51,154 bases of DNA from a virus. Each line of letters begins with the position of its first letter. Positions within the stretch are counted from its first letter, which is position 1. The stretch is from positions 1 through 51,154 of IMG/VR virus record IMGVR_UViG_3300018946_000001. One strand, 5' to 3'. Positions 7,494-51,154 of this stretch are shown here, in pieces. The notes below the pieces were generated by a model. It did not search any database and was not told the origin of the DNA. It saw nothing but the letters and a program-made list of their open reading frames with translations. A program made the position numbers and the translations under genes.

Positions 7494-7811
7494 CTAGTCA
7501 GTAATGACCCGATCTGCTATCAGGCTCTCTCTGCTTACGATGTCGCCCGGACGACCGTCGCTCCACACTTCCCGGTATGCCTTCTTCCCTGCTCGGAGCA
7601 TCACGCCTGTGTCACTGCATGGTGCGTCCTGCGCCAGAATAAGTGCATCCCAGCCGACAATGTGCGGTGGATCGGGATATTGTGCTGGAAAGTGCTGTTG
7701 ATGGAGCGCTGCTACTGCTTGCTCGATCACTGCGGTCTTGCTGTTGTCATAGTAGGGCAACAAATCCGCCATCTGCCGTTTGAGCTGTTCCGTTTCGCGA
7801 TAGCCAGCCAT
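7494..7811 (-). CDS. Hypothetical protein
   Basis: 105-aa ORF. Its start overlaps the stop of the upstream minus-strand gene by 1 nt. Protein-like composition. Confidence 0.5.
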   Translation of the reverse strand: MAGYRETEQLKRQMADLLPYYDNSKTAVIEQAVAALHQQHFPAQYPDPPHIVGWDALILAQDAPCSDTGVMLRAGKKAYREVWSDGRPGDIVSRESLIADRVITD

Positions 7812-8137
7812 CAGTACTCCTCATCTAGCGTATCGAACCGCTCACGCAAGGAGGCAATGGCGCTGTCGAAGTAACTCAGGGCGGGCTCGTCGTTGTTCAT
7901 CTCGTCAGTGTCAAGCTGGGGGATGCCGAGAATAAGCCCAGGCGACTCGTACAGATTGCCAATCTCATTGTTCCACAGGACACGAAACGTACCGTCATCA
8001 AACAGTTCCACCGAATACCCGCTGCCGCCATAGCCCGCCTGGGTTGATGAGATAATCGCATCTTCCGCCGAATCTACTATGAACGCCTCGAACGCTGCGC
8101 CAAACTGCTGCTGAAGTGTCATCGCTGTACCTTTCAC
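7811..8137 (-). CDS. Acidic hypothetical protein
   Basis: 108-aa ORF (GTG at 8137 or ATG at 8122), D/E-rich (DTDEMNNDE, DTLDEEY). Preceded by its own promoter and operator. Confidence 0.5.
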   Translation of the reverse strand: MKGTAMTLQQQFGAAFEAFIVDSAEDAIISSTQAGYGGSGYSVELFDDGTFRVLWNNEIGNLYESPGLILGIPQLDTDEMNNDEPALSYFDSAIASLRERFDTLDEEY

Positions 8138-8153
8138 GAATGTGTTTCTCCCT

Positions 8154-8184
8154 GTGTGTTACAATGTAACACTTCGTAACACAC
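8154..8184. promoter_or_regulatory. Operator: 17-bp perfect palindrome plus a third half-site
   Basis: GTGTTACAATGTAACAC (8156-8172) is centred on the -10 element. An extra GTAACAC sits at 8176-8182. Confidence 0.55.
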
Positions 8185-8191
8185 TTGTCTA
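8163..8191 (-). promoter_or_regulatory. Candidate sigma70-type promoter for 8137-7494
   Basis: On the minus strand: TAGACA, 17 nt, TACATT. Confidence 0.45.
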
Positions 8192-8210
8192 GTATCAATA
8201 TTTGATGGAC

Positions 8211-8246
8211 AAACGAAAGCGCCCGGCTCGGTGGAGCGGGGCGCTT
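8211..8246 (-). terminator. Rho-independent terminator after 8265-8939
   Basis: 13-bp GC-rich stem with one mismatch, 4-nt loop, followed on the minus strand by TCGTTTGT. Confidence 0.6.
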
Positions 8247-8264
8247 GTGGTGGGGAGGGGTAGG

Positions 8265-8939
8265 CTAGTGGTTGTGCCGAGTGCCGCGCTTGCGGGTTCT
8301 GCGGCCCTTTACGTCCGAGGCTGACAGCAGTTCGTTGCAGCCACAGGCGCATACCGGCAACTCGGCTGCTTGCGTGGCTACTGGCGGTGCTGGCACAAGT
8401 AGTGGTGTGTGTGCAGGCGTCACGGAATTAGGCTCCCGGGCGCTTGCAGGCACTGCTGCTTCTGAGTTGTCGTCTTCCTCGACCGCTTGCACCTCAACAG
8501 CCGGTGTGTACTCAACTTGGGGCGCAATGCGTGCGTAGTTCAGTGCGGGCTCATCCTTGACCGGCGCTGTATGCAGCAATAGATCCGACACGAGGTATGC
8601 TACCCAGGCCAACGGCGCACCGTGTAGCACTGCCAGCAAGCACTCACCCCAGAACGGCAGCGATGCAAGCAACTCAGTGTTGCGGTGGAACAACCCAGCC
8701 AGTGTGTTGTATAGCACGCTGGTAACGACCGCGCCCACGCTGATGAGGGTTGCACGTCGCCTGCCAGCATTGTCCAGTCCTTGTACCACAGCCAAACCAA
8801 TGTATGTCAACTCAAATGCAGCTGCTTGCACAACAGCTACCCAGAACGGAACGAACAGCGCCGCGAATGAATACACGCCGTAGCTTGCAGCCAGTGCAAG
8901 CATCGGAAGCGGCAAGCGTGCCAGAAGATTACGCCACAT
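8265..8939 (-). CDS. Polytopic membrane protein with a Pro/Ala-rich linker and a Cys/basic C-terminal tail
   Basis: About 4 hydrophobic helices in the N-terminal 120 aa. The C-terminus is CACGCNE...KGRRTRKRGTRHNH. Confidence 0.6.
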   Translation of the reverse strand: MWRNLLARLPLPMLALAASYGVYSFAALFVPFWVAVVQAAAFELTYIGLAVVQGLDNAGRRRATLISVGAVVTSVLYNTLAGLFHRNTELLASLPFWGECLLAVLHGAPLAWVAYLVSDLLLHTAPVKDEPALNYARIAPQVEYTPAVEVQAVEEDDNSEAAVPASAREPNSVTPAHTPLLVPAPPVATQAAELPVCACGCNELLSASDVKGRRTRKRGTRHNH

Positions 8940-8943
8940 ATAT

Positions 8944-9972
8944 TTATGCCTCTTGTGCCTGCTTCGCTTCGCGTGACAGGCGTACTATTTGATTGTAATC
9001 ACCACCTAATTCCCGAAGGATTGCACGGGTACTTTTGCCATCAACTGCAAGCTCTTGCACTCGTTCTTGCCACGCTATGCTATCCGCCGAGGGTGTGCTA
9101 TCGTGGCTGCTATAGCGCTCTATAGCGGGGTATAGCGGCTCTCCGATAGCAGCGAATGCGCGGTTTGTGTGCAAGGTTTGGTCAACCATTTTCGGCACAG
9201 AGCGGGTATCAAGTTCGTGTTTTTCCTTGCCCCAGCGATAAGCCCATGCGCGGTAGGTATCTTCCTCGCACTCGACAAACAAGCAGTTGTGCCGTGCCTC
9301 GCCGCGCCCTTCCCATCCCCATGCCTTGACGTTTGTTTCAGTGGCGCAAATGATTACACGCACTCGTGATGAGCGGCCGAGCGTTACCAGATCCAGCACG
9401 GTATCACGCAGCTCTGGACACTTACCGATCACGGTGCTGTACTCATCAACCACGACGGTTAGCCACGGTAGATCCTCGGTTGCTTCGTCGTCTGCGTTGC
9501 GTCGTAGCATCTCGCTGTACACTGCTTGCACGGCCAAGGCGATAGGCTCAAAGCTCATATCTTCCTGGCGCAAGCGCACCGCCGGGAAATCGCCCCACGG
9601 ATCTGCGCGGCGGCTCTTCGGTGTACAGATCACAAGCTGCCCTGGCCTATCGTGTAGGGCTGCAAGCACCAGCGACGTTTTGCCGCTGCCGCTCGGCCCG
9701 CTAACGGCAAGGTGGGGGGTCTTATCGGGCTGATTGTTTAGCCGGTCAAGCCATGCCTGCGGTGCCAGGGGGGGTGTACTTGCAGGCATTGCAAGCGTGC
9801 TTGCAGGCGGCGGCTGGTGAGCGCGTGCTGATGCTTGCGGTGTCGTTGTGTGTGCTTTGCCCCGGCCTATTTGTGACAGCCACAGCAGACCGTAGCAAAG
9901 CGTCGCACCAATGATGCATAACCACACTGCACCGAACATAATCACTTCTGGCGTAATTTCGCGCTCACCCAT
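8944..9972 (-). CDS. Membrane-anchored FtsK/SpoIIIE (TraB-like) P-loop DNA translocase with a C-terminal HTH
   Basis: N-terminal TM (FGAVWLCIIGATLCYGLLWL). Walker A is VSGPSGSGKTS and Walker B is LTVVVDEYS. ICTPK, VYSEMLRR and GRSSRVRVIICATETN parallel the FtsK blocks. C-terminal STRAILRELGGDYNQIVRLS. Confidence 0.7.
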   Translation of the reverse strand: MGEREITPEVIMFGAVWLCIIGATLCYGLLWLSQIGRGKAHTTTPQASARAHQPPPASTLAMPASTPPLAPQAWLDRLNNQPDKTPHLAVSGPSGSGKTSLVLAALHDRPGQLVICTPKSRRADPWGDFPAVRLRQEDMSFEPIALAVQAVYSEMLRRNADDEATEDLPWLTVVVDEYSTVIGKCPELRDTVLDLVTLGRSSRVRVIICATETNVKAWGWEGRGEARHNCLFVECEEDTYRAWAYRWGKEKHELDTRSVPKMVDQTLHTNRAFAAIGEPLYPAIERYSSHDSTPSADSIAWQERVQELAVDGKSTRAILRELGGDYNQIVRLSREAKQAQEA

Positions 9973-40326: not shown

Positions 40327-40366
40327 ACACACACAGTCCGGGCCATTGCGCCCGGGCTGTGTGTGT
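40327..40366 (+). terminator. Terminator of the structural operon
   Basis: 17-bp stem ACACACACAGTCCGGGC / GCCCGGGCTGTGTGTGT (one G-U pair), 6-nt loop. Preceded by the tandem repeat ACCTTGTC ACCTTGTC. Confidence 0.65.
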
Positions 40367-40407
40367 CTATGTATCTGACACTAGTTAGGCGATATAATGG
40401 TGAGACT

Positions 40408-40698
40408 ATGGATGAAAACGAAAAGAAACTAGCAGTGTATCTCTGTTCGGTTGTCAATCAGGGATGTGTTCAGCCGCATACCGCTGTGTTCGCATGGTTT
40501 TTGTGGAAGGCGCTTCGCAGTACCGTGCGTATGCCGAATGTTGCCCCCGGCCCTAATGGGCAACTACTGCTCATGTGGAATACAGGCCCACACCACCTAG
40601 AAGCTGAGATATTCCCCGATGGCACTGTAGAATATTTCTATATTCACCATGACACAAACAGAATGGTTGAGGCAACAGTGCCAATAATGAACCACTAG
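40408..40698 (+). CDS. Hypothetical protein (AT-richer moron)
   Basis: ORF open from 40363. The ATG at 40408 follows GGTGAG. Confidence 0.4.
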   Translation: MDENEKKLAVYLCSVVNQGCVQPHTAVFAWFLWKALRSTVRMPNVAPGPNGQLLLMWNTGPHHLEAEIFPDGTVEYFYIHHDTNRMVEATVPIMNH

Positions 40699-40742
40699 CT
40701 GGTTAGGCATCAGGAAGCGCAACACGGATCGGCGGCGAGTTG

Positions 40743-41516
40743 TTACTTCATTGCGGCAACAAACATATCTGCCGCCTGTCCCATTCTTCGATCACAACGC
40801 ATAAAAACAAGCTGTGCAGTGTCGAGATCTCCATCACCTTTTATCATAGCGCTTACAGAATCAATACAGGTATTTGTTGCCTCGACAAGCGCATCGTGCG
40901 CATCAGTATACGCAGAAGGCACATTTGTAATTGCCACAAGGTTACGATATGACTGCCGCAGCACAGACTGCTCCAGTTCCACATCTTGAGACCAATTAGC
41001 ACTACGGGTGCTCTTCGTAGCTGCCTCTATGTCTTCCAGTGCGCTTTGTATCTGTGTGATCTCAGGGCGTATAAGATCAAGATACGGATTCCCCTTTGTT
41101 GCTATCGGCTGTTCTGTATTGTTGCCTATAACCACAACTATTACCAGCACGCCAATGATACCAAGTACCGCAGACAATACGAGCACAAGTCCGTTTCTTT
41201 TTCGCTTTGGCCGAGCTAGGATCACCGTTGTAGCCGCTACCACTGGCGCAACAGACGCTTCAAGCAGCGGTGAGCGTGTGCCACCAGGGCCGAGTTGCTG
41301 AAGCCTTTTGGTGGCCGCTGGGCTGCCTGGATGAGCAGCCAGCACTTGTAGCAGACAATAGCGCCGCTCTTCGGGCGCTGTGATGACAGAGGAGAGCCAA
41401 AGCCATGCGGTGGCATCGCTCGCATCGGCCTGCACCGCGGCTAGTAACAACGTGCGAGCCTGGGCCACATCGCCGTTTTTTGCAGCGGCAATACCAGCTT
41501 CTGTCTGATTGGGCAT
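40743..41516 (-). CDS. Single-pass membrane protein with an N-terminal TPR-like cytoplasmic domain
   Basis: GGGAG RBS 7 nt before the ATG at 41516. GDVAQARTLLLAAVQADASDATAWLWLS...PEERRYCL. TM segment LVLVLSAVLGIIGVLVIVVVI. Confidence 0.6.
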   Translation of the reverse strand: MPNQTEAGIAAAKNGDVAQARTLLLAAVQADASDATAWLWLSSVITAPEERRYCLLQVLAAHPGSPAATKRLQQLGPGGTRSPLLEASVAPVVAATTVILARPKRKRNGLVLVLSAVLGIIGVLVIVVVIGNNTEQPIATKGNPYLDLIRPEITQIQSALEDIEAATKSTRSANWSQDVELEQSVLRQSYRNLVAITNVPSAYTDAHDALVEATNTCIDSVSAMIKGDGDLDTAQLVFMRCDRRMGQAADMFVAAMK

Positions 41517-41652
41517 AGAAAACTCCCGTGTGCTTCCAATGTTGGGGAGTCTACTACGGCAGCGTACCACGCTGTTACCAAATCCTTACCAGCTATCACA
41601 AGCGGTAGTATGAACTTTCAGTTATCTCGGTTAAAAGGTGAAACATAAACCA

Positions 41653-45915: not shown

Positions 45916-45994
45916 CCTAGCACACAGCGCCGCTCCTTGGAGTCAGGGGCGGCGAGGATAGCCCAATGACCGCAGCGACCGCCACAGCCGCAAC

Positions 45995-46022
45995 CAAAAG
46001 CCCCCGCCGAATTGGCAGGGGC
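45995..46022 (-). terminator. Terminator for minus-strand gene 46050-46325
   Basis: AGCCCC...GGGGCT stem, followed on the minus strand by TTTTGG. Confidence 0.45.
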
Positions 46023-46049
46023 TGCGAGGCGTGTGCGAGGGGCGGCGGG

Positions 46050-46325
46050 TTAGGCCATTTGCAAGAGATCGACACGCTGCAACTGTTCAGCGGTCAAGGT
46101 TGCGTGATATTTCTCACTAAACGGCTCAATATAGGTGTACCGATAGTGCGAAGGACGGGGCCGCTCTCGCCCGCTGTCACCACTGAACTGCTGTCCATTC
46201 ATCAACGTTACGACTTGCCCAGAGGCCGTAACGCTACCAATGCGTCCCGTGCCGAGGTATTCACTTTTTTTCAGGTGATCGTACTGAACCAACACGACTT
46301 TCATGCCGACTGTAAATCTACTCAT
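46050..46325 (-). CDS. Hypothetical protein
   Basis: 91 aa, protein-like. Second gene of a minus-strand pair. Confidence 0.5.
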   Translation of the reverse strand: MSRFTVGMKVVLVQYDHLKKSEYLGTGRIGSVTASGQVVTLMNGQQFSGDSGRERPRPSHYRYTYIEPFSEKYHATLTAEQLQRVDLLQMA

Positions 46326-46349
46326 AGCAATACTCCTTGCTGGCGCGGG

Positions 46350-46616
46350 TTAGGCTGCTATTCGCTGGTCAGGCTCATCTTCGTTTACCAAGTCGCCTAC
46401 AGATACACCAATCACTTTAGCAATAATGCGAAGCAAGGTAATGTCAACCAGTTTGATCGGCTCTCCAGATGCAAGCCCGTTCTTCGTACTGTACCAATAG
46501 CGGCGCAGTGTACCCAGCGGGATAGCACGACCCCCACGTATGACCGCCTCTTGCAGAGCCGACAGCGTGGGCAGCCCGTGGGCTTTGGCTTGTTCCTGAA
46601 CTCGCAAGCGCGTCAT
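46350..46616 (-). CDS. HTH DNA-binding regulator (second repressor-like gene)
   Basis: GAGGGAGG RBS 5 nt before the ATG at 46616. AKAHGLPTLSALQEAV...LLRIIAKVIGVSVGDLV. Confidence 0.55.
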   Translation of the reverse strand: MTRLRVQEQAKAHGLPTLSALQEAVIRGGRAIPLGTLRRYWYSTKNGLASGEPIKLVDITLLRIIAKVIGVSVGDLVNEDEPDQRIAA

Positions 46617-46637
46617 ATATGCCTCCCTCAAAGAATA

Positions 46638-46653
46638 ATACAGAACTCTGTAT
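46638..46653. promoter_or_regulatory. Palindromic operator ATACAGA-AC-TCTGTAT
   Basis: 7-bp arms. The 9-mer ACTCTGTAT is repeated at 46725-46733, overlapping the + promoter -10. Confidence 0.55.
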
Positions 46654-46698
46654 GTAGACTATATCACAAGAATACCCTTCAGTCAATATACTATACTC

Positions 46699-46727
46699 TT
46701 GACAAGCCACAGTCAGTATGCTATACT
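46699..46727 (+). promoter_or_regulatory. Promoter of the replication operon
   Basis: TTGACA, 17 nt, TATACT. Confidence 0.6.
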
Positions 46728-46805
46728 CTGTATATAGCAAACAACGCAGCGCCCGCCGGGGTCCAGCCGACGAGCGCCACTAGCCACCAGGAAGGTATCA
46801 TCTTC

Positions 46806-47378
46806 ATGGCAACCACTTCGCAGTTTACCACAACCACCCCCGCCTTCGTCAAGACTGTCACCTACGACCGTGGCGACTACCGCGCCGAACTGAACGGCGA
46901 GATCAAGGGCTTCTACCGCAGCGAGACCGCCGCACTGAGCGCCCTTAATGACCTCGTATATGACCTGCTGGATGAGCAGGTTCTTGATGCTGCCCAGTGT
47001 GCTGATGACGAAGCTGACTACATCGAAGCCATCGCTGATGTCGTCGGCTGCACTCCTGAGCAGGTCGCTGACGTGCTGGCGTTCGAGGCGACCCAGCCAG
47101 CCATCGACAACGAGATGGCAGTGTGGTTGCATAACGATACGAATGATTGGTCTGTGCGCGTACTCGCCCCCACTACCGACGATGCGGCCGACGCCGACGC
47201 AGCCACCATCACCTACGAGATTGACCTGAACTGCACCACTGGCTTCTACGAGGCCACTACCCCTGATGGCGTGGTGATTGGCCGAGGCCAGTGCTACAGC
47301 GATGCCGACCGCGATGCGCTTCTGAGCATCACGGCTATTCGTGCTGAGTTGGGTTATCCGAAAGTTGAGGCAGCGTGA
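46806..47378 (+). CDS. Strongly acidic hypothetical protein
   Basis: AGGAAGG RBS. Very D/E-rich with few K/R. The 5' 280 codons of the 470-aa track ORF are antisense to better genes. Confidence 0.55.
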   Translation: MATTSQFTTTTPAFVKTVTYDRGDYRAELNGEIKGFYRSETAALSALNDLVYDLLDEQVLDAAQCADDEADYIEAIADVVGCTPEQVADVLAFEATQPAIDNEMAVWLHNDTNDWSVRVLAPTTDDAADADAATITYEIDLNCTTGFYEATTPDGVVIGRGQCYSDADRDALLSITAIRAELGYPKVEAA

Positions 47379-47768: not shown

Positions 47769-48590
47769 ATGACCGACTTCATGACCGACGCACAAGGCTA
47801 CACGACGACCTACACCGAGACAGGACACCAGAGCGACGGACTGCTACGCATCCAGTGGCGCAACGGCTCGCCACAGGCGCAGACCCCCGGCCACTTCTTT
47901 GTCGAGGCCGACCGGCTGGAGGGGCTAGGGCTCTCTGCGCCGACCGCGCCTTGGGTGGCCTTCGACGCCATCTTTGCCAGTGGCGACAGCAAGAGCGGCT
48001 ATCGTTGCGATGCCGCCAAACTCCAGATCATCGGTGTGCGCCAGCAGGACGCCATCAAGAATGCTGAGAACCGCATTGAGACATACCTAACTGAGCGCAC
48101 ACAAAAGGGCAACCGGCCGCAGGGCTGGACGGTGGTGGTTGAGCTGCTGTGTGGCATCGAGGGCTTTGATCAGCCGGTGGTCGTTAAAAGCAACGGTATC
48201 AAAACCTCAATGGCCCTGGTGATCGATGTATACGGCGGGATGCGAACGCTCCGCAAAGAGGCCAGCAAATTAACCGGGAACTCGCTGCCGCCGTGGTTCT
48301 TCTTCGCCCCGGTACGTTGCGGGCGCGATGACAAGAATAAGGTTATCTACGAGAAGACCCAGGGCGCGATGGTCACGCCTCCGCGCCTGGTGCTGCCGAA
48401 CGATAAGACGGGCCGCGACCTGTTCAACAGTTTGTATGTCGGCAAAGAGCTGGTGCAGTGGGGCGAAGCGGTCTACACCGAGCGTAAGGATTGGCTCTTG
48501 GAGCCAATCGGCAGCACTGAGGCCATGCCGACAACGAACGGGCGCAACGTGCCGCAGCCCATTGATGAGATGGTTGATCTTCCGTTCTAG
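47769..48590 (+). CDS. Replication-module protein ending in an SSB-like acidic DLPF tip (candidate ssDNA-binding/annealing protein)
   Basis: 273 aa. C-terminus PIDEMVDLPF. Located directly upstream of the primase-helicase gene. Confidence 0.55.
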   Translation: MTDFMTDAQGYTTTYTETGHQSDGLLRIQWRNGSPQAQTPGHFFVEADRLEGLGLSAPTAPWVAFDAIFASGDSKSGYRCDAAKLQIIGVRQQDAIKNAENRIETYLTERTQKGNRPQGWTVVVELLCGIEGFDQPVVVKSNGIKTSMALVIDVYGGMRTLRKEASKLTGNSLPPWFFFAPVRCGRDDKNKVIYEKTQGAMVTPPRLVLPNDKTGRDLFNSLYVGKELVQWGEAVYTERKDWLLEPIGSTEAMPTTNGRNVPQPIDEMVDLPF

Positions 48591-48637: not shown

Positions 48638-48654
48638 AGAAATAAGGTGTGTGT

Positions 48655-51048
48655 ATGACTGCTGCCACGCTAACAACTGCTCGCACCCTGATCGCCGCTG
48701 GCATCTCGGTGATTCCCATCCATGATGATGGCAGCAAAGCACCGACCCTGAAGTGGAAATTATTCCAGGAACGCACGCCAACAACCAAGGAAGTTGATGG
48801 CTGGTTACGCAATAGCGGCAAAGGGATCGCGGTTGTCACTGGCGCAGTGAGTGGCAACCTTGAAACCTTCGATGCCGATGCGCCTGAACTGTTTGACCAG
48901 TGGGCGGCGAACGTAGAGCACGACGCGCCCGGACTGTTGGCCCGCATCCCGATGGCGGCCACGCCTACGGGTGGTCGCCATCTGTACTACCGTTGCGATG
49001 CGCCGCCCCCTGGCAATATGAAACTGGCACAACGTCACCCAACACCAGCAGAGCAGGCAGCAGCGCCCGGCCTACTGGCGGTGGTGCTCTTTGAGACGCG
49101 GGGCGAGGGTGGCTATGCTATTGTGCCACCCTCGCCAGCCGCATGCCATCCGAGTGGTAAGCCCTATGTGATGCTGAATCTTGCCATTGAAGATGCCCCT
49201 ACCCTTACCGCCGACGAGCGAGCAATATTAATCAGTAACGCACGGATCTTTAACACCTATGTGCCGGCGGCCCAGGTGGTACGGGGCACAAAGCCTCGCA
49301 GCAACGCCACAGGCGATGAGCGACCCGGCGACCGTTATAACCGCGAGGCGGATTGGTCTGATCTGCTGCCGCGCCACGGCTGGCACTCGATGGGCGTGCG
49401 GGGCGAAGTCGAGATGTGGCAGCGGCCTGGCAAGGATGGGCGCGGTCTCAGCGCCACTACAAACTACGGCGGCAGCAACCTGCTGTACGTCTTCAGTTCG
49501 AGCGCCGCCCCCTTCGAGCCGGAACATGCCTACTCGCTCTTTGCTGCAAAGGTGCTCTTGGAGCATAACGGCGATTACAGCGAGGCAGGGAAAGCACTAT
49601 GGAAAGAGCAACAGATGAATACGCCAACCCCTAGCAAGCCTCGTGTCAATACTGCGACCGGCGAAATATTGAACGGTGATGATCGGCCAGCACCGAGGCC
49701 CGCTATTGAAACCGAGGACGGCAACCGCTACATCCTGGTGCCAAAAATCCCGCTTGATGTCAACGACCTGTTGACGATGGAGCGCAAGCCGGTAGTGTGG
49801 TATGCCCCCAACTTTCTACGTGAAGGACTGGGCTTGATTGTGGGGCAGCCCAACGTCGGCAAAACACCGGCGGCGGTGCAGCTCGCCATCGCCCTGGCGA
49901 CGGGCACGAAGTGGCTGGGGGCTATCGAGTGCCCACAGTGCAATGTGTTGTATCTCGGTGTGGAGTACAGCGCCCAAGAGCTTATCCCGATGTTTGATAT
50001 TTCCCGCATGGGTATGTCAATCCCTCGTGGCCGTCTGCACGTTAAGACAATCGAGGATGATTTCCCCCAGACACCAGAGGATGCCCTAGCCGAGCTTGAT
50101 TGGTATATGCGAGTGATGCAGATTAACGTCGTCATCATCGATGTGCTAACGGCCTTTCTGCCCCCCGAGAAGTTCAAGCAGAACGTGTATCGTGGCGACT
50201 ACTCCGAACTGAAGCCGTATCACAAGCTCGCCCTGCACTACAACGCCGCAATCCTCGGCGTGTGGCACGCATCGAAGCGAGAGGCCGACCCGAAGATCAT
50301 GTACAACGGATCGACCGGCATGTGGGCTGCGGCGGCCAGCCGTATGGCGATGTACCAGGACCAGGAGCAACGAGTACGCATCGCCTCATTCCCGCGCATG
50401 GGCGATAAGGTGGATTGGGCCTTGACCCAGGAAGTGACCAGCCGGGGCCGTCGCTGGATTGTCTCTGACACCGCACCAGAGCCAATGATGGGCAGCACCG
50501 AGCAGGCTATTTACCGCTTCCTGAAGGACAACGCTACCGACGTATTGCCCCTCGGCCCAGGCACCATAGCCGAGATGACTGGCCTCCCCAACAACACCGT
50601 AAAGGTAACGGTGCGGCGTATGTTCCTCAAGAATCTGTTACAGCAGGTTGGTAGCAGCGGTGGCTATTACGTAGAGCCAGCCAAGACACCAGAGGATGTT
50701 GTAACCGATGAAACCCTTGAAACTTCTGTAACCGATGTAACCTTTGTAACTTCAGATGATTTATTTGAAGCTCAAAAGGTTACAAATGTAACCGATTGTA
50801 ACCCTGTTTGTAACCCTGTTTCAGCGCATCAGGACGCCGCAAACGAAGGTGGGTTACAAAAGTTACACGATATTCCAGGTTACAAGGTTTCAGGCGCGGT
50901 TACAACCAATTATTCCTATGACGGCGTGCAGTCTGGTAATGGTCCGGTTGTGTGGCGCGTATTCAACGATACCACCGATGCCATTGTGGGTGAGTACACC
51001 AGCGAAGCCGACGCGATAGCCGCAATCAATCAGAGGGTACAGCAATGA
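48655..51048 (+). CDS. Bifunctional primase-polymerase (Prim-Pol N-terminal domain) / RepA-RecA-like P-loop helicase with a C-terminal wHTH
   Basis: AGISVIPIHDDGSKAP..KWK...GIAVVTG...ETRGEGGYAIVPPS (Prim-Pol). LIVGQPNVGKT (Walker A), VVIIDVL (Walker B). IAEMTGLPNNTVKVTVRRM. Confidence 0.8.
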   Translation: MTAATLTTARTLIAAGISVIPIHDDGSKAPTLKWKLFQERTPTTKEVDGWLRNSGKGIAVVTGAVSGNLETFDADAPELFDQWAANVEHDAPGLLARIPMAATPTGGRHLYYRCDAPPPGNMKLAQRHPTPAEQAAAPGLLAVVLFETRGEGGYAIVPPSPAACHPSGKPYVMLNLAIEDAPTLTADERAILISNARIFNTYVPAAQVVRGTKPRSNATGDERPGDRYNREADWSDLLPRHGWHSMGVRGEVEMWQRPGKDGRGLSATTNYGGSNLLYVFSSSAAPFEPEHAYSLFAAKVLLEHNGDYSEAGKALWKEQQMNTPTPSKPRVNTATGEILNGDDRPAPRPAIETEDGNRYILVPKIPLDVNDLLTMERKPVVWYAPNFLREGLGLIVGQPNVGKTPAAVQLAIALATGTKWLGAIECPQCNVLYLGVEYSAQELIPMFDISRMGMSIPRGRLHVKTIEDDFPQTPEDALAELDWYMRVMQINVVIIDVLTAFLPPEKFKQNVYRGDYSELKPYHKLALHYNAAILGVWHASKREADPKIMYNGSTGMWAAAASRMAMYQDQEQRVRIASFPRMGDKVDWALTQEVTSRGRRWIVSDTAPEPMMGSTEQAIYRFLKDNATDVLPLGPGTIAEMTGLPNNTVKVTVRRMFLKNLLQQVGSSGGYYVEPAKTPEDVVTDETLETSVTDVTFVTSDDLFEAQKVTNVTDCNPVCNPVSAHQDAANEGGLQKLHDIPGYKVSGAVTTNYSYDGVQSGNGPVVWRVFNDTTDAIVGEYTSEADAIAAINQRVQQ
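50700..50904. repeat. Iteron array: 7 direct TGTAAC(C) plus 5 inverted (G)GTTACA copies
   Basis: TGTAACC at 50700, 50727, 50736, 50787, 50797 and 50809. TGTAACT at 50745. GGTTACA at 50778, 50852, 50878 and 50898. AGTTACA at 50861. Confidence 0.85.
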
Positions 51049-51154
51049 TCAAAGCAATTCAGACCCGCTATAACGGCTACCATTTCCGTAGCAGGATCGA
51101 GGCTAGGTGGGCTGTGTTCCTTGATGCGCTTGGTATTAAATATGAATACGAGGC
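51028..51154. repeat. Terminal overlap, copy 2 (identical to 1-127)
   Basis: Exact repeat of 1-127. It contains the primase stop (51046-51048) and the ATG (51045) that equals position 18. Confidence 0.95.

Follow-up and report, generated by a model that had tools for sequence, protein, structure and literature searches.

The window analysed here is a stretch of 51,154 nucleotides of viral DNA (IMG/VR virus record IMGVR_UViG_3300018946_000001, positions 1 to 51,154). Close to its right end it carries a gene for a primase-helicase whose 3' part contains a dense array of short repeats, the candidate replication origin that is the subject of this report (Table 1). The window begins and ends with an exact 127-bp terminal direct repeat (1-127 = 51028-51154), and is therefore a circularly closed or terminally redundant phage genome of 51,027 bp. 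The public call for the primase-helicase gene (P0001) starts at the ATG at 48655 and gives 797 amino acids (aa); this database protein is identical to that of the window, and its exact sequence was found only on its own 51,168-bp metagenome contig.

The primase-helicase gene and its repeat array

An AlphaFold model of the protein, built on 57 homologues (mean predicted local distance difference test score, pLDDT, of 82), comprises five parts: a Prim-Pol (archaeo-eukaryotic primase-polymerase) domain, a RecA-type helicase core, a module of three helices and a beta-hairpin, a segment of low pLDDT and a strand-strand-helix tail. The first part matched the prim-pol domain of pRN1 ORF904 in Foldseek (1rni; template-modelling (TM) score 0.68, normalised to the target) as well as PHROG 19930, 'DNA polymerase/primase'. 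The folded helicase core reaches to about aa 605, past the Pfam match to AAA_25, and its Foldseek matches were DnaB (E ~1e-9), RecA, KaiC and RSF1010 RepA (1g8y and 1olo, TM 0.68 to the target). The Walker-A residue K403, D496 and H538 are invariant in this core, and its Walker A and B motifs and modelled structural similarity place it among the SF4 helicases (DnaB/RSF1010 RepA-like). PF09250 and PF13481 were the only Pfam domains in the 799-aa protein, with no SF3-type D5_N or Pox_D5 domain (PF08706, PF03288), and a PDB sequence search revealed no similarity to any chain. When modelled alone, the three-helix module matched the winged helices of ZBP1 Z-beta, TtgV/IclR, ArsR, LexA and MarR (TM up to 0.87 to the target). 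Pfam, Foldseek and AlphaFold thus bear out the primase-helicase identity given in an initial annotation of the window, and the protein is predicted to join a Prim-Pol domain, a RecA-type helicase and a winged helix, in this order, in one polypeptide. The disordered segment of the model (nucleotides 50686-50865 and 50899-50940) corresponds to the repeat array, in agreement with the earlier description of an odd peptide lying between the winged helix-turn-helix and a short C-terminal domain; relatives other than P0013 carry unrelated tails in place of that domain.

The sequence TGTAACY occurs 22 times in the window, 12 of them within the 205 bp of 50700-50904 (0.04 copies expected there from background; Poisson P(>=12) ~4e-26) and the other 10 in the remaining 50.9 kb. 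Seven array copies are direct (plus-strand starts at 50700, 50727, 50736, 50745, 50787, 50797 and 50809) and five are inverted (minus-strand starts at 50778, 50852, 50861, 50878 and 50898), exactly as the initial annotation had counted and placed them. Its judgement that such a density exceeds chance is likewise upheld: the array is the strongest hexamer cluster of the window, with 12 copies versus 8 for the runner-up (a GC-rich coding stretch of low complexity), and it holds 10 of the window's 13 exact copies of TGTAACC, for which shuffling predicts 3.75 in the whole window. One-mismatch copies were found at 50709 (TGAAACC), 50718 (TGAAACT) and 50886 (GGTTTCA). Array copies fall in all three reading frames; the units of the left arm keep to one frame, repeating every three codons, and the inverted copies lie in frames other than those of the direct ones. 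Local GC content is 0.35 at 50700-50799 versus ~0.57-0.60 around it, and valine and threonine codon usage in the array, compared with 11 ORFs (open reading frames), deviated only by a weak excess of GTA (p=0.04).

The left arm consists of six head-to-tail units, four with exact TGTAAC and two with one mismatch, and is followed by a spacer and a facing pair of opposite copies. The facing-pair pattern (GTTACA-N0-4-TGTAAC) occurs twice in the window, here and at 8156-8172, versus 0.01 expected. The tandem duplication described earlier is an exact one and adds the direct copies at 50797 and 50809; a 32-bp gap without copies then precedes the inverted copies of the right arm. The claim that direct copies occupy the first half and inverted copies the second holds overall, but the inverted copy at 50778 lies in the first half, where it faces the direct copy at 50787. 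Degenerate copies at 50605 and 50638 had been reckoned to the element as well; both lie within the coding sequence of the winged helix, the one at 50605 is unconserved in relatives and probably due to chance, and neither is counted here.

Table 1 Positions of the gene, its predicted domains, the parts of the array and related sites in the window
Feature	Position	Strand	Basis and remarks
Gene for the primase-helicase and putative initiator	48649-51048	+	799-aa ORF from GTG 48649 (ORF list)
Prim-Pol domain	48682-49200	+	aa 12-184; PF09250, E=1.4e-19
RecA-type (SF4, DnaB/RSF1010-RepA-like) helicase core	49753-50463	+	aa 369-545; PF13481 AAA_25, E=2.9e-18
Predicted winged helix-turn-helix (wHTH)	50494-50670	+	aa 616-674; AlphaFold, pLDDT ~90; H1 50494-50532, H2 50557-50580, recognition helix H3 50590-50628 (NNTVKVTVRRMFL), wing 50641-50670
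Predicted disordered linker (coding read-out of the element)	50686-50940	+	ORF aa 680-739 and 751-764; pLDDT ~30
Left arm, six 9-bp units	50700-50753		TGTAACCGA, TGAAACCCT, TGAAACTTC, TGTAACCGA, TGTAACCTT, TGTAACTTC
AT-rich spacer, 24 bp	50754-50777		AGATGATTTATTTGAAGCTCAAAA; 75% A+T; unconserved in relatives
Facing pair	50778-50793		GGTTACA-AA-TGTAACC; kept as GGTTACAAATGTAACC in L001, L004 and L010
Tandem duplication, 12 bp	50796-50819		TTGTAACCCTGT x2
Conserved core, 19 nt	50826-50844		GCATCAGGACGCCGCAAAC; family consensus ~GCAYYAGGAMGCNNYAAAC; alignment, gap sequences of 16 loci
Right arm, inverted doublet	50852-50867		GGTTACAAAAGTTACA; two copies 9 bp apart
Right arm, further inverted copies	50878-50904		GGTTACA 50878-50884, degenerate GGTTTCA 50886-50892, GGTTACA 50898-50904
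Small C-terminal domain	50950-51042	+	Two strands and a helix; AlphaFold; common to the relative P0013
Outlying core match	40707-40725		GCATCAGGAAGCGCAACAC; 22.6 bits; top-ranked matrix site of the window, equally good match
Palindrome	8156-8172		TGTTACA-A-TGTAACA, then CGTAACAC; intergenic, upstream of ORF 7811-8137 (-)

Conservation of the array and its co-variation with the winged helix

We fetched 21 distinct related loci and determined, for each, which hexamer is most over-represented within 350 bp past the end of the winged helix. A full array was present in 19 of them, down to ~30% protein identity, and started ~0-50 nt past the winged-helix end; of the other two loci, one has two copies (P0013/L027) and one is on a contig that ends three copies in. 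The shared layout comprises five to nine direct copies 9 bp apart, a 14-34 bp spacer, a facing pair, zero to two more direct copies, a 41-54 bp gap, an inverted doublet (or triplet) with 9-bp spacing, and one to three more inverted copies. The inverted doublet was found 41-54 bp past the last left-hand copy in almost all relatives. Typical loci carry 12 copies in the array and none in the rest of the locus (L004, L012), and in lineages of other specificity the facing pair reads GTTGCAAATGCAAC or GCAACACGTGTTGC.

Comparison of L001 and L004 (76% protein identity) revealed that codons for identical residues are the same at 46 of 49 positions in the array (94%) versus 212 of 493 elsewhere in the gene (43%; Fisher p=6e-13). 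In L013, the peptide VTPVTDVT, as in the window type, is always encoded by GTC-ACN, which yields TGTCAC, and the inverted copies read GTGACA. VADVA peptides are encoded with TGTTGC in one lineage and with TGTAGC in another, where the matching inverted copies read QQEQ and GYK, respectively. In L030, the ORF stops 24 codons past the winged helix and the complete architecture fills a 170-bp intergenic spacer (in order: six TGTTGCGCT units in 9-bp phase, the facing pair GCAACACGTGTTGC, two more copies, the core, GCGCAACAAGCGCAACA and GCGCAACA); L028 begins like L030 before its contig ends. Translation of the element is therefore optional, and in most members the ORF appears to be extended through it to reach the tail domain. 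These patterns argue that the repeats are a DNA element, with the constraint acting on the DNA and not on the peptide.

The repeat type also tracks positions 5-7 of the recognition helix in 55 family proteins. TGTAAC (window, L001, L004, L010, L020) goes with helix residues K[VG][TSM] and the repeat peptide VT, TGCAAC (L012, L015, L016, L028) with KS. and AT, TGAAAC (L025) with KT[ACS] and ET, TGTAGC (L031) with KT[LM] and VA + GYK, TGTTGC (L006, L014, L017, L024, L030) or TGTTAT (L026) with RT[LI] and VA + QQ, and TGTCAC (L013) with RTV and VT. These assignments agree with the DNA of the fetched loci and amount to at least seven specificities; the distant loci L021 and L022 (~30% identity) carry the repeats GATCAG/TGATCC and GGGATC. 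Column entropy revealed that invariant positions (T35, V36, K/R37, L40, R42, M43, N47) alternate with variable ones (33, 34, 38, 39, 41), which is the pattern expected of a DNA-facing helix surface. Taken together, the array is almost certainly a functional element at the DNA level, matched to the adjacent winged helix.

The gap between the two arms holds a conserved core, which lies 8 nt upstream of the inverted doublet in the window and at a similarly short distance in relatives. This core is fairly GC-rich, is kept across iteron specificities and primase types, is present in the intergenic array of L030 and in L031, and is read in two different frames (..HQDA.. and ..ALES..). A position weight matrix of the core, built without a locus's own hexamer group, gave the site the top rank in 13 of 15 loci; in the window it came second, behind an outlying site (Table 1). 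The outlying site lies in a 44-bp gap between the convergent ORFs 40363-40698 (+) and 40743-41570 (-) with no iterons nearby, and on its sequence it possibly belongs to the origin system.

We found the same module of helicase, winged helix and array fused to different primases (Prim-Pol, zinc-ribbon/Toprim DnaG-type and others), which argues that the array's partner is the C-terminal module and not the primase. The family P0001-P0042 is modular throughout: a helicase/winged-helix core (60-74% identity) is combined with at least three unrelated primase N-termini and, past the array, with at least four unrelated tails (LRLYLRSN..SDQERA..GIDYD, MP..L..T.RMMLVSD, VVWRVF.D and DGYRVFEGVNGVYVY). The array, standing at the downstream module boundary, may be a recombination joint. 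Where the ORF stops soon past the winged helix or the array, it ends in an acidic tail with a final F (..EEDDDTF, ..DDDTF, ..SDDIF, ..ENDIF; L028 3180-3209, L030 3560-3588, and P0020, P0027, P0134, P0031 and P0023); these tails resemble the partner-recruiting C-terminal tails of SSB, T7 gp4 and T7 gp2.5.

Proposed origin function and its alternatives

The initial annotation had proposed a candidate origin made of initiator-bound iterons inside the initiator gene. The clustering, position and architecture of the array, the constraint at the DNA level, the helix-hexamer co-variation and the domain make-up of the protein all support this proposal. We conclude that the phage's replication origin probably has its iterons at 50700-50904, where they are bound by the phage's own initiator and overprinted by the 3' part of the initiator gene. 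The recognition helix H3 of the predicted winged helix (NNTVKVTVRRM) would read TGTAAC(C), as the co-variation suggests. On the left, protomers would assemble on the facing pair and the six direct copies in 9-bp phase; on the right, they would assemble on the copies of opposite orientation. Two helicase assemblies would then stand head-to-head around the core and open the duplex there, a scheme modelled on SaPI Rep, SV40 large T and papillomavirus E1. We suspect the core to be the point of duplex opening or entry for the conserved helicase module because it is invariant to both iteron specificity and primase type. The fused primase would make the first primers and a host polymerase would presumably extend them; neither a DNA polymerase nor a clamp was detected among the window ORFs scanned. 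The ORF would stay open across the element as a disordered linker.

Several points weigh against this assignment. Binding by the winged helix and firing of the origin are both argued from analogy, the binding also from co-variation, and the co-variation is partly confounded by shared descent. The inflection proposed earlier as a check was looked for and gave no signal: neither GC skew nor cumulative skew (raw and detrended, on the 51,027-bp circle) turned near 50.7 kb, and the detrended minimum and maximum fell at 11.3 kb and 23.7 kb. Skew in this genome follows gene orientation, however, and is therefore uninformative, so that origin function is not refuted by it. A conserved AT-rich unwinding element was sought across the loci and none was found; the windows of minimum GC content fell mostly on the hexamers themselves, the AT-rich 24-mer at 50754-50777 has no counterpart outside the window, and the centre that is conserved is rather rich in GC. 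With a spacing of 9 bp, neighbouring sites do not share one face of the helix, and we know of no solved complex of a ring helicase that uses such an arrangement. Finally, two relatives have few or no copies within the ORF (two in P0013/L027, none in P0129), and the array is not strictly obligatory there.

The alternative that survives best, although we consider it unlikely, is that the array is bound by its own winged helix in a mainly regulatory role (as a roadblock or site of auto-repression at the 3' end of the gene, in copy control by handcuffing, or in titration of the initiator), with the true origin elsewhere. Plasmid iterons have roles in both initiation and control, and the facing-pair motif recurs at 8158-8170 in a promoter-like intergenic region, which suggests that the hexamer can also be an operator. 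The initial annotation had pointed out a GTAAC core there, and a palindrome that contains GTAAC does exist (Table 1); from its sequence, this palindrome may either offer the initiator's winged helix a second site or be an operator unrelated to it. A regulatory role fits less well with a primase-helicase protein, in which a sequence-specific domain would most obviously serve to recognise an origin, and with two oppositely oriented arms around a conserved core, which match the origins of self-loading helicases; moreover, a scan for hexamer clusters revealed no other repeat cluster in the 51-kb genome fit to be an origin.

We regard a partition (centromere-like) or packaging site for another phage protein, which merely happens to lie inside a replication gene, as a very improbable reading of the repeats. 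Both parS and pac sites are typically made up of short repeats in either orientation. A centromere site of N15 lies within repA (PMC2847241). In the family studied here, however, the hexamer co-varies with the recognition helix encoded in cis across at least seven specificities, and the array, intergenic or not, always adjoins the end of the sequence that encodes the winged helix; neither ParA nor ParB was detected among the window ORFs scanned, and the terminase gene lies ~19 kb away across the circular junction. That the repeats are a selected VT-rich flexible linker or slippage-derived low complexity with no DNA function, as the disordered read-out and the in-frame, three-codon period of the left arm could suggest, is effectively refuted by the near-frozen synonymous sites of L001/L004 and the non-ORF architecture of L030, and further by inverted copies in other frames, one peptide encoded through different array-consistent hexamers, and a core read in two frames.

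An exhaustive HMMER search with the helicase end and winged helix returned only 43 cluster representatives among 1.84 billion proteins, and the nearest relatives of P0001 are ~51% identical, all from metagenomes. Among 50,697 phage records, a whole-gene DNA search gave no match, and tblastn with the helicase and winged helix gave only six weak partial matches to the helicase core at <=32% identity (four in Microbacterium phages, two in faecal phages); the gene of Microbacterium phage Nebulous ends directly past the helicase, without an array. Extending tblastn to plasmids yielded only helicase cores of ~30% identity, in an Anabaena plasmid and a Caldicellulosiruptor plasmid. A scan of GTDB genomes found no relative, IMG/VR yielded only two loci, and a search of the literature for a Prim-Pol or DnaG-type primase combined with AAA_25, a winged helix and in-gene hexamer arrays found nothing. 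We raise only tentatively, as a possibility we doubt more than we credit, that these form a previously undescribed, uncultured clade of self-loading SF4 primase-helicase-initiators with a fixed origin grammar and a specificity code readable from sequence (at least seven specificities), in which the core, with a second copy at 40.7 kb, is a helicase-loading, melting or priming signal. If so, the core would be a new kind of signal, recognised by a conserved helicase module.

With sequence as the only source, these results place the probable origin of a 51-kb phage that is uncultured. Origin specificity and recognition helix appear to have diversified together, and the pairs (at least seven of them readable) offer naturally occurring data with which to study a winged-helix recognition code and orthogonal replicons. 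An SF4 (DnaB/RepA-type) helicase with its own predicted origin-binding domain would be a compact system in which to study how such a ring gets onto duplex DNA when initiator and loader are not separate proteins. The same putative origin inside and outside a reading frame makes a clean case of a cis element overprinted by a gene, and for annotation, odd VT-, AT-, VA- or ET-repeat linkers in primase-helicases can mark origins.

Genome setting and comparison with known systems

The window encodes a large terminase, a major capsid protein, an amidase, a Dam methylase, a dCTP deaminase, an HNH endonuclease and a Cro/CI-type helix-turn-helix protein. An endonuclease-I/Holliday-junction-resolvase-like gene starts at 51046 and continues at 18-752 of the window. 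Upstream, the ORF at 45966-47378 (470 aa) is probably over-extended: its first half overlaps the leftward ORFs 46050-46325 and 46350-46631, and only its distal part (~46.8-47.4 kb) is gene-like. No family match was found for this ORF or for 47769-48590, the gene directly upstream of the primase-helicase, and a promoter and terminator scan of 48.0-51.15 kb stayed at shuffle level. The leftward gene pair 8944-9972 (-) and 8265-8939 (-) adjoins the intergenic region that bears the palindrome and includes an nSTAND1/AAA_16-like NTPase (PF20703, E=1.4e-6); the pair may be a defence or counter-defence cassette. In the related 53-kb phage contig L006, a homologue of the DNA polymerase III beta sliding clamp lies at 8021-8400, ~2.6 kb downstream of the primase-helicase.

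The closest mechanistic analogue of the window system is SaPI Rep. In the self-loading, hexameric SaPI Rep helicases, the C-terminal winged helix binds 6-12 penta- or hexanucleotide iterons, whose direction is reversed from one side of the origin to the other; these iterons lie next to the 3' end of the rep gene, and in SaPI5 a primase is fused to Rep (PMC9371898). The window system shares the C-terminal winged helix, here a predicted one, and the short, oppositely oriented iterons at the 3' end. The SaPI helicase core is AAA+ (SF3 or MCM-like), whereas that of the window is assigned to the RecA-type/SF4 class by Pfam and Foldseek, and the SaPI origin is intergenic with an AT-rich centre, whereas the element of the window family usually lies inside the ORF and has a conserved, GC-containing core as its centre.

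The iterons of P4 lie outside the alpha gene. P4 alpha and pRN1 ORF904 carry primase, helicase and winged helix in one polypeptide, with a proposed or known role in origin recognition, and the pRN1 origin lies downstream of orf904, its binding site being undefined (PMC2777425). The domain order is the same as in the window protein, and the Prim-Pol domain of the latter is homologous to that of ORF904 (PF09250, 1rni). Their helicase, however, is SF3 (with D5_N-related domains), a type undetected in the window protein, and those relatives of the Prim-Pol half that carry PF08706 or PF03288 are without the AAA_25 and winged-helix half.

The resemblance to lambda O is one of principle only, an origin inside the initiator gene that is read as a linker. 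The origin iterons of lambda lie within the initiator gene and are translated as an inter-domain linker, to which extra iterons add residues (PMC7466680). Unlike the window protein, lambda O is an initiator only, without primase or helicase, that recruits host DnaB through P, and its iterons are of ~19 bp and stand beside an AT-rich tract; no O-type replication-protein match was found for the window protein in Pfam or PHROG. Replication of N15 is bidirectional and starts within repA (PMC2847241). The RepA proteins of N15, phiKO2 and PY54 are, like the window protein, multifunctional replication proteins of primase type with initiation inside their own gene, but tblastn gave no close match of this kind among the phage records; the comparison with N15 covers the type of protein and the site of initiation.

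T7 gp4 is a primase fused to an SF4 helicase. RSF1010 RepA, DnaB and T7 gp4 resemble the window protein in their RecA-type helicase core (Foldseek) but have no sequence-specific origin-binding domain and need separate initiators or loaders (RepC, DnaA/DnaC) or, for T7, transcription, whereas the window protein has a predicted winged helix and putative cognate iterons. The window system is thus a member of none of the SaPI, P4 alpha/pRN1, lambda O and N15 families, and its 9-bp-phased hexamers with an invariant core make a distinct grammar. The principle of an iteron origin within the initiator gene is known already; what appears to be new is the family itself, together with a specificity code that can be read from it and the joining of an SF4 helicase to a predicted origin-binding domain of its own.

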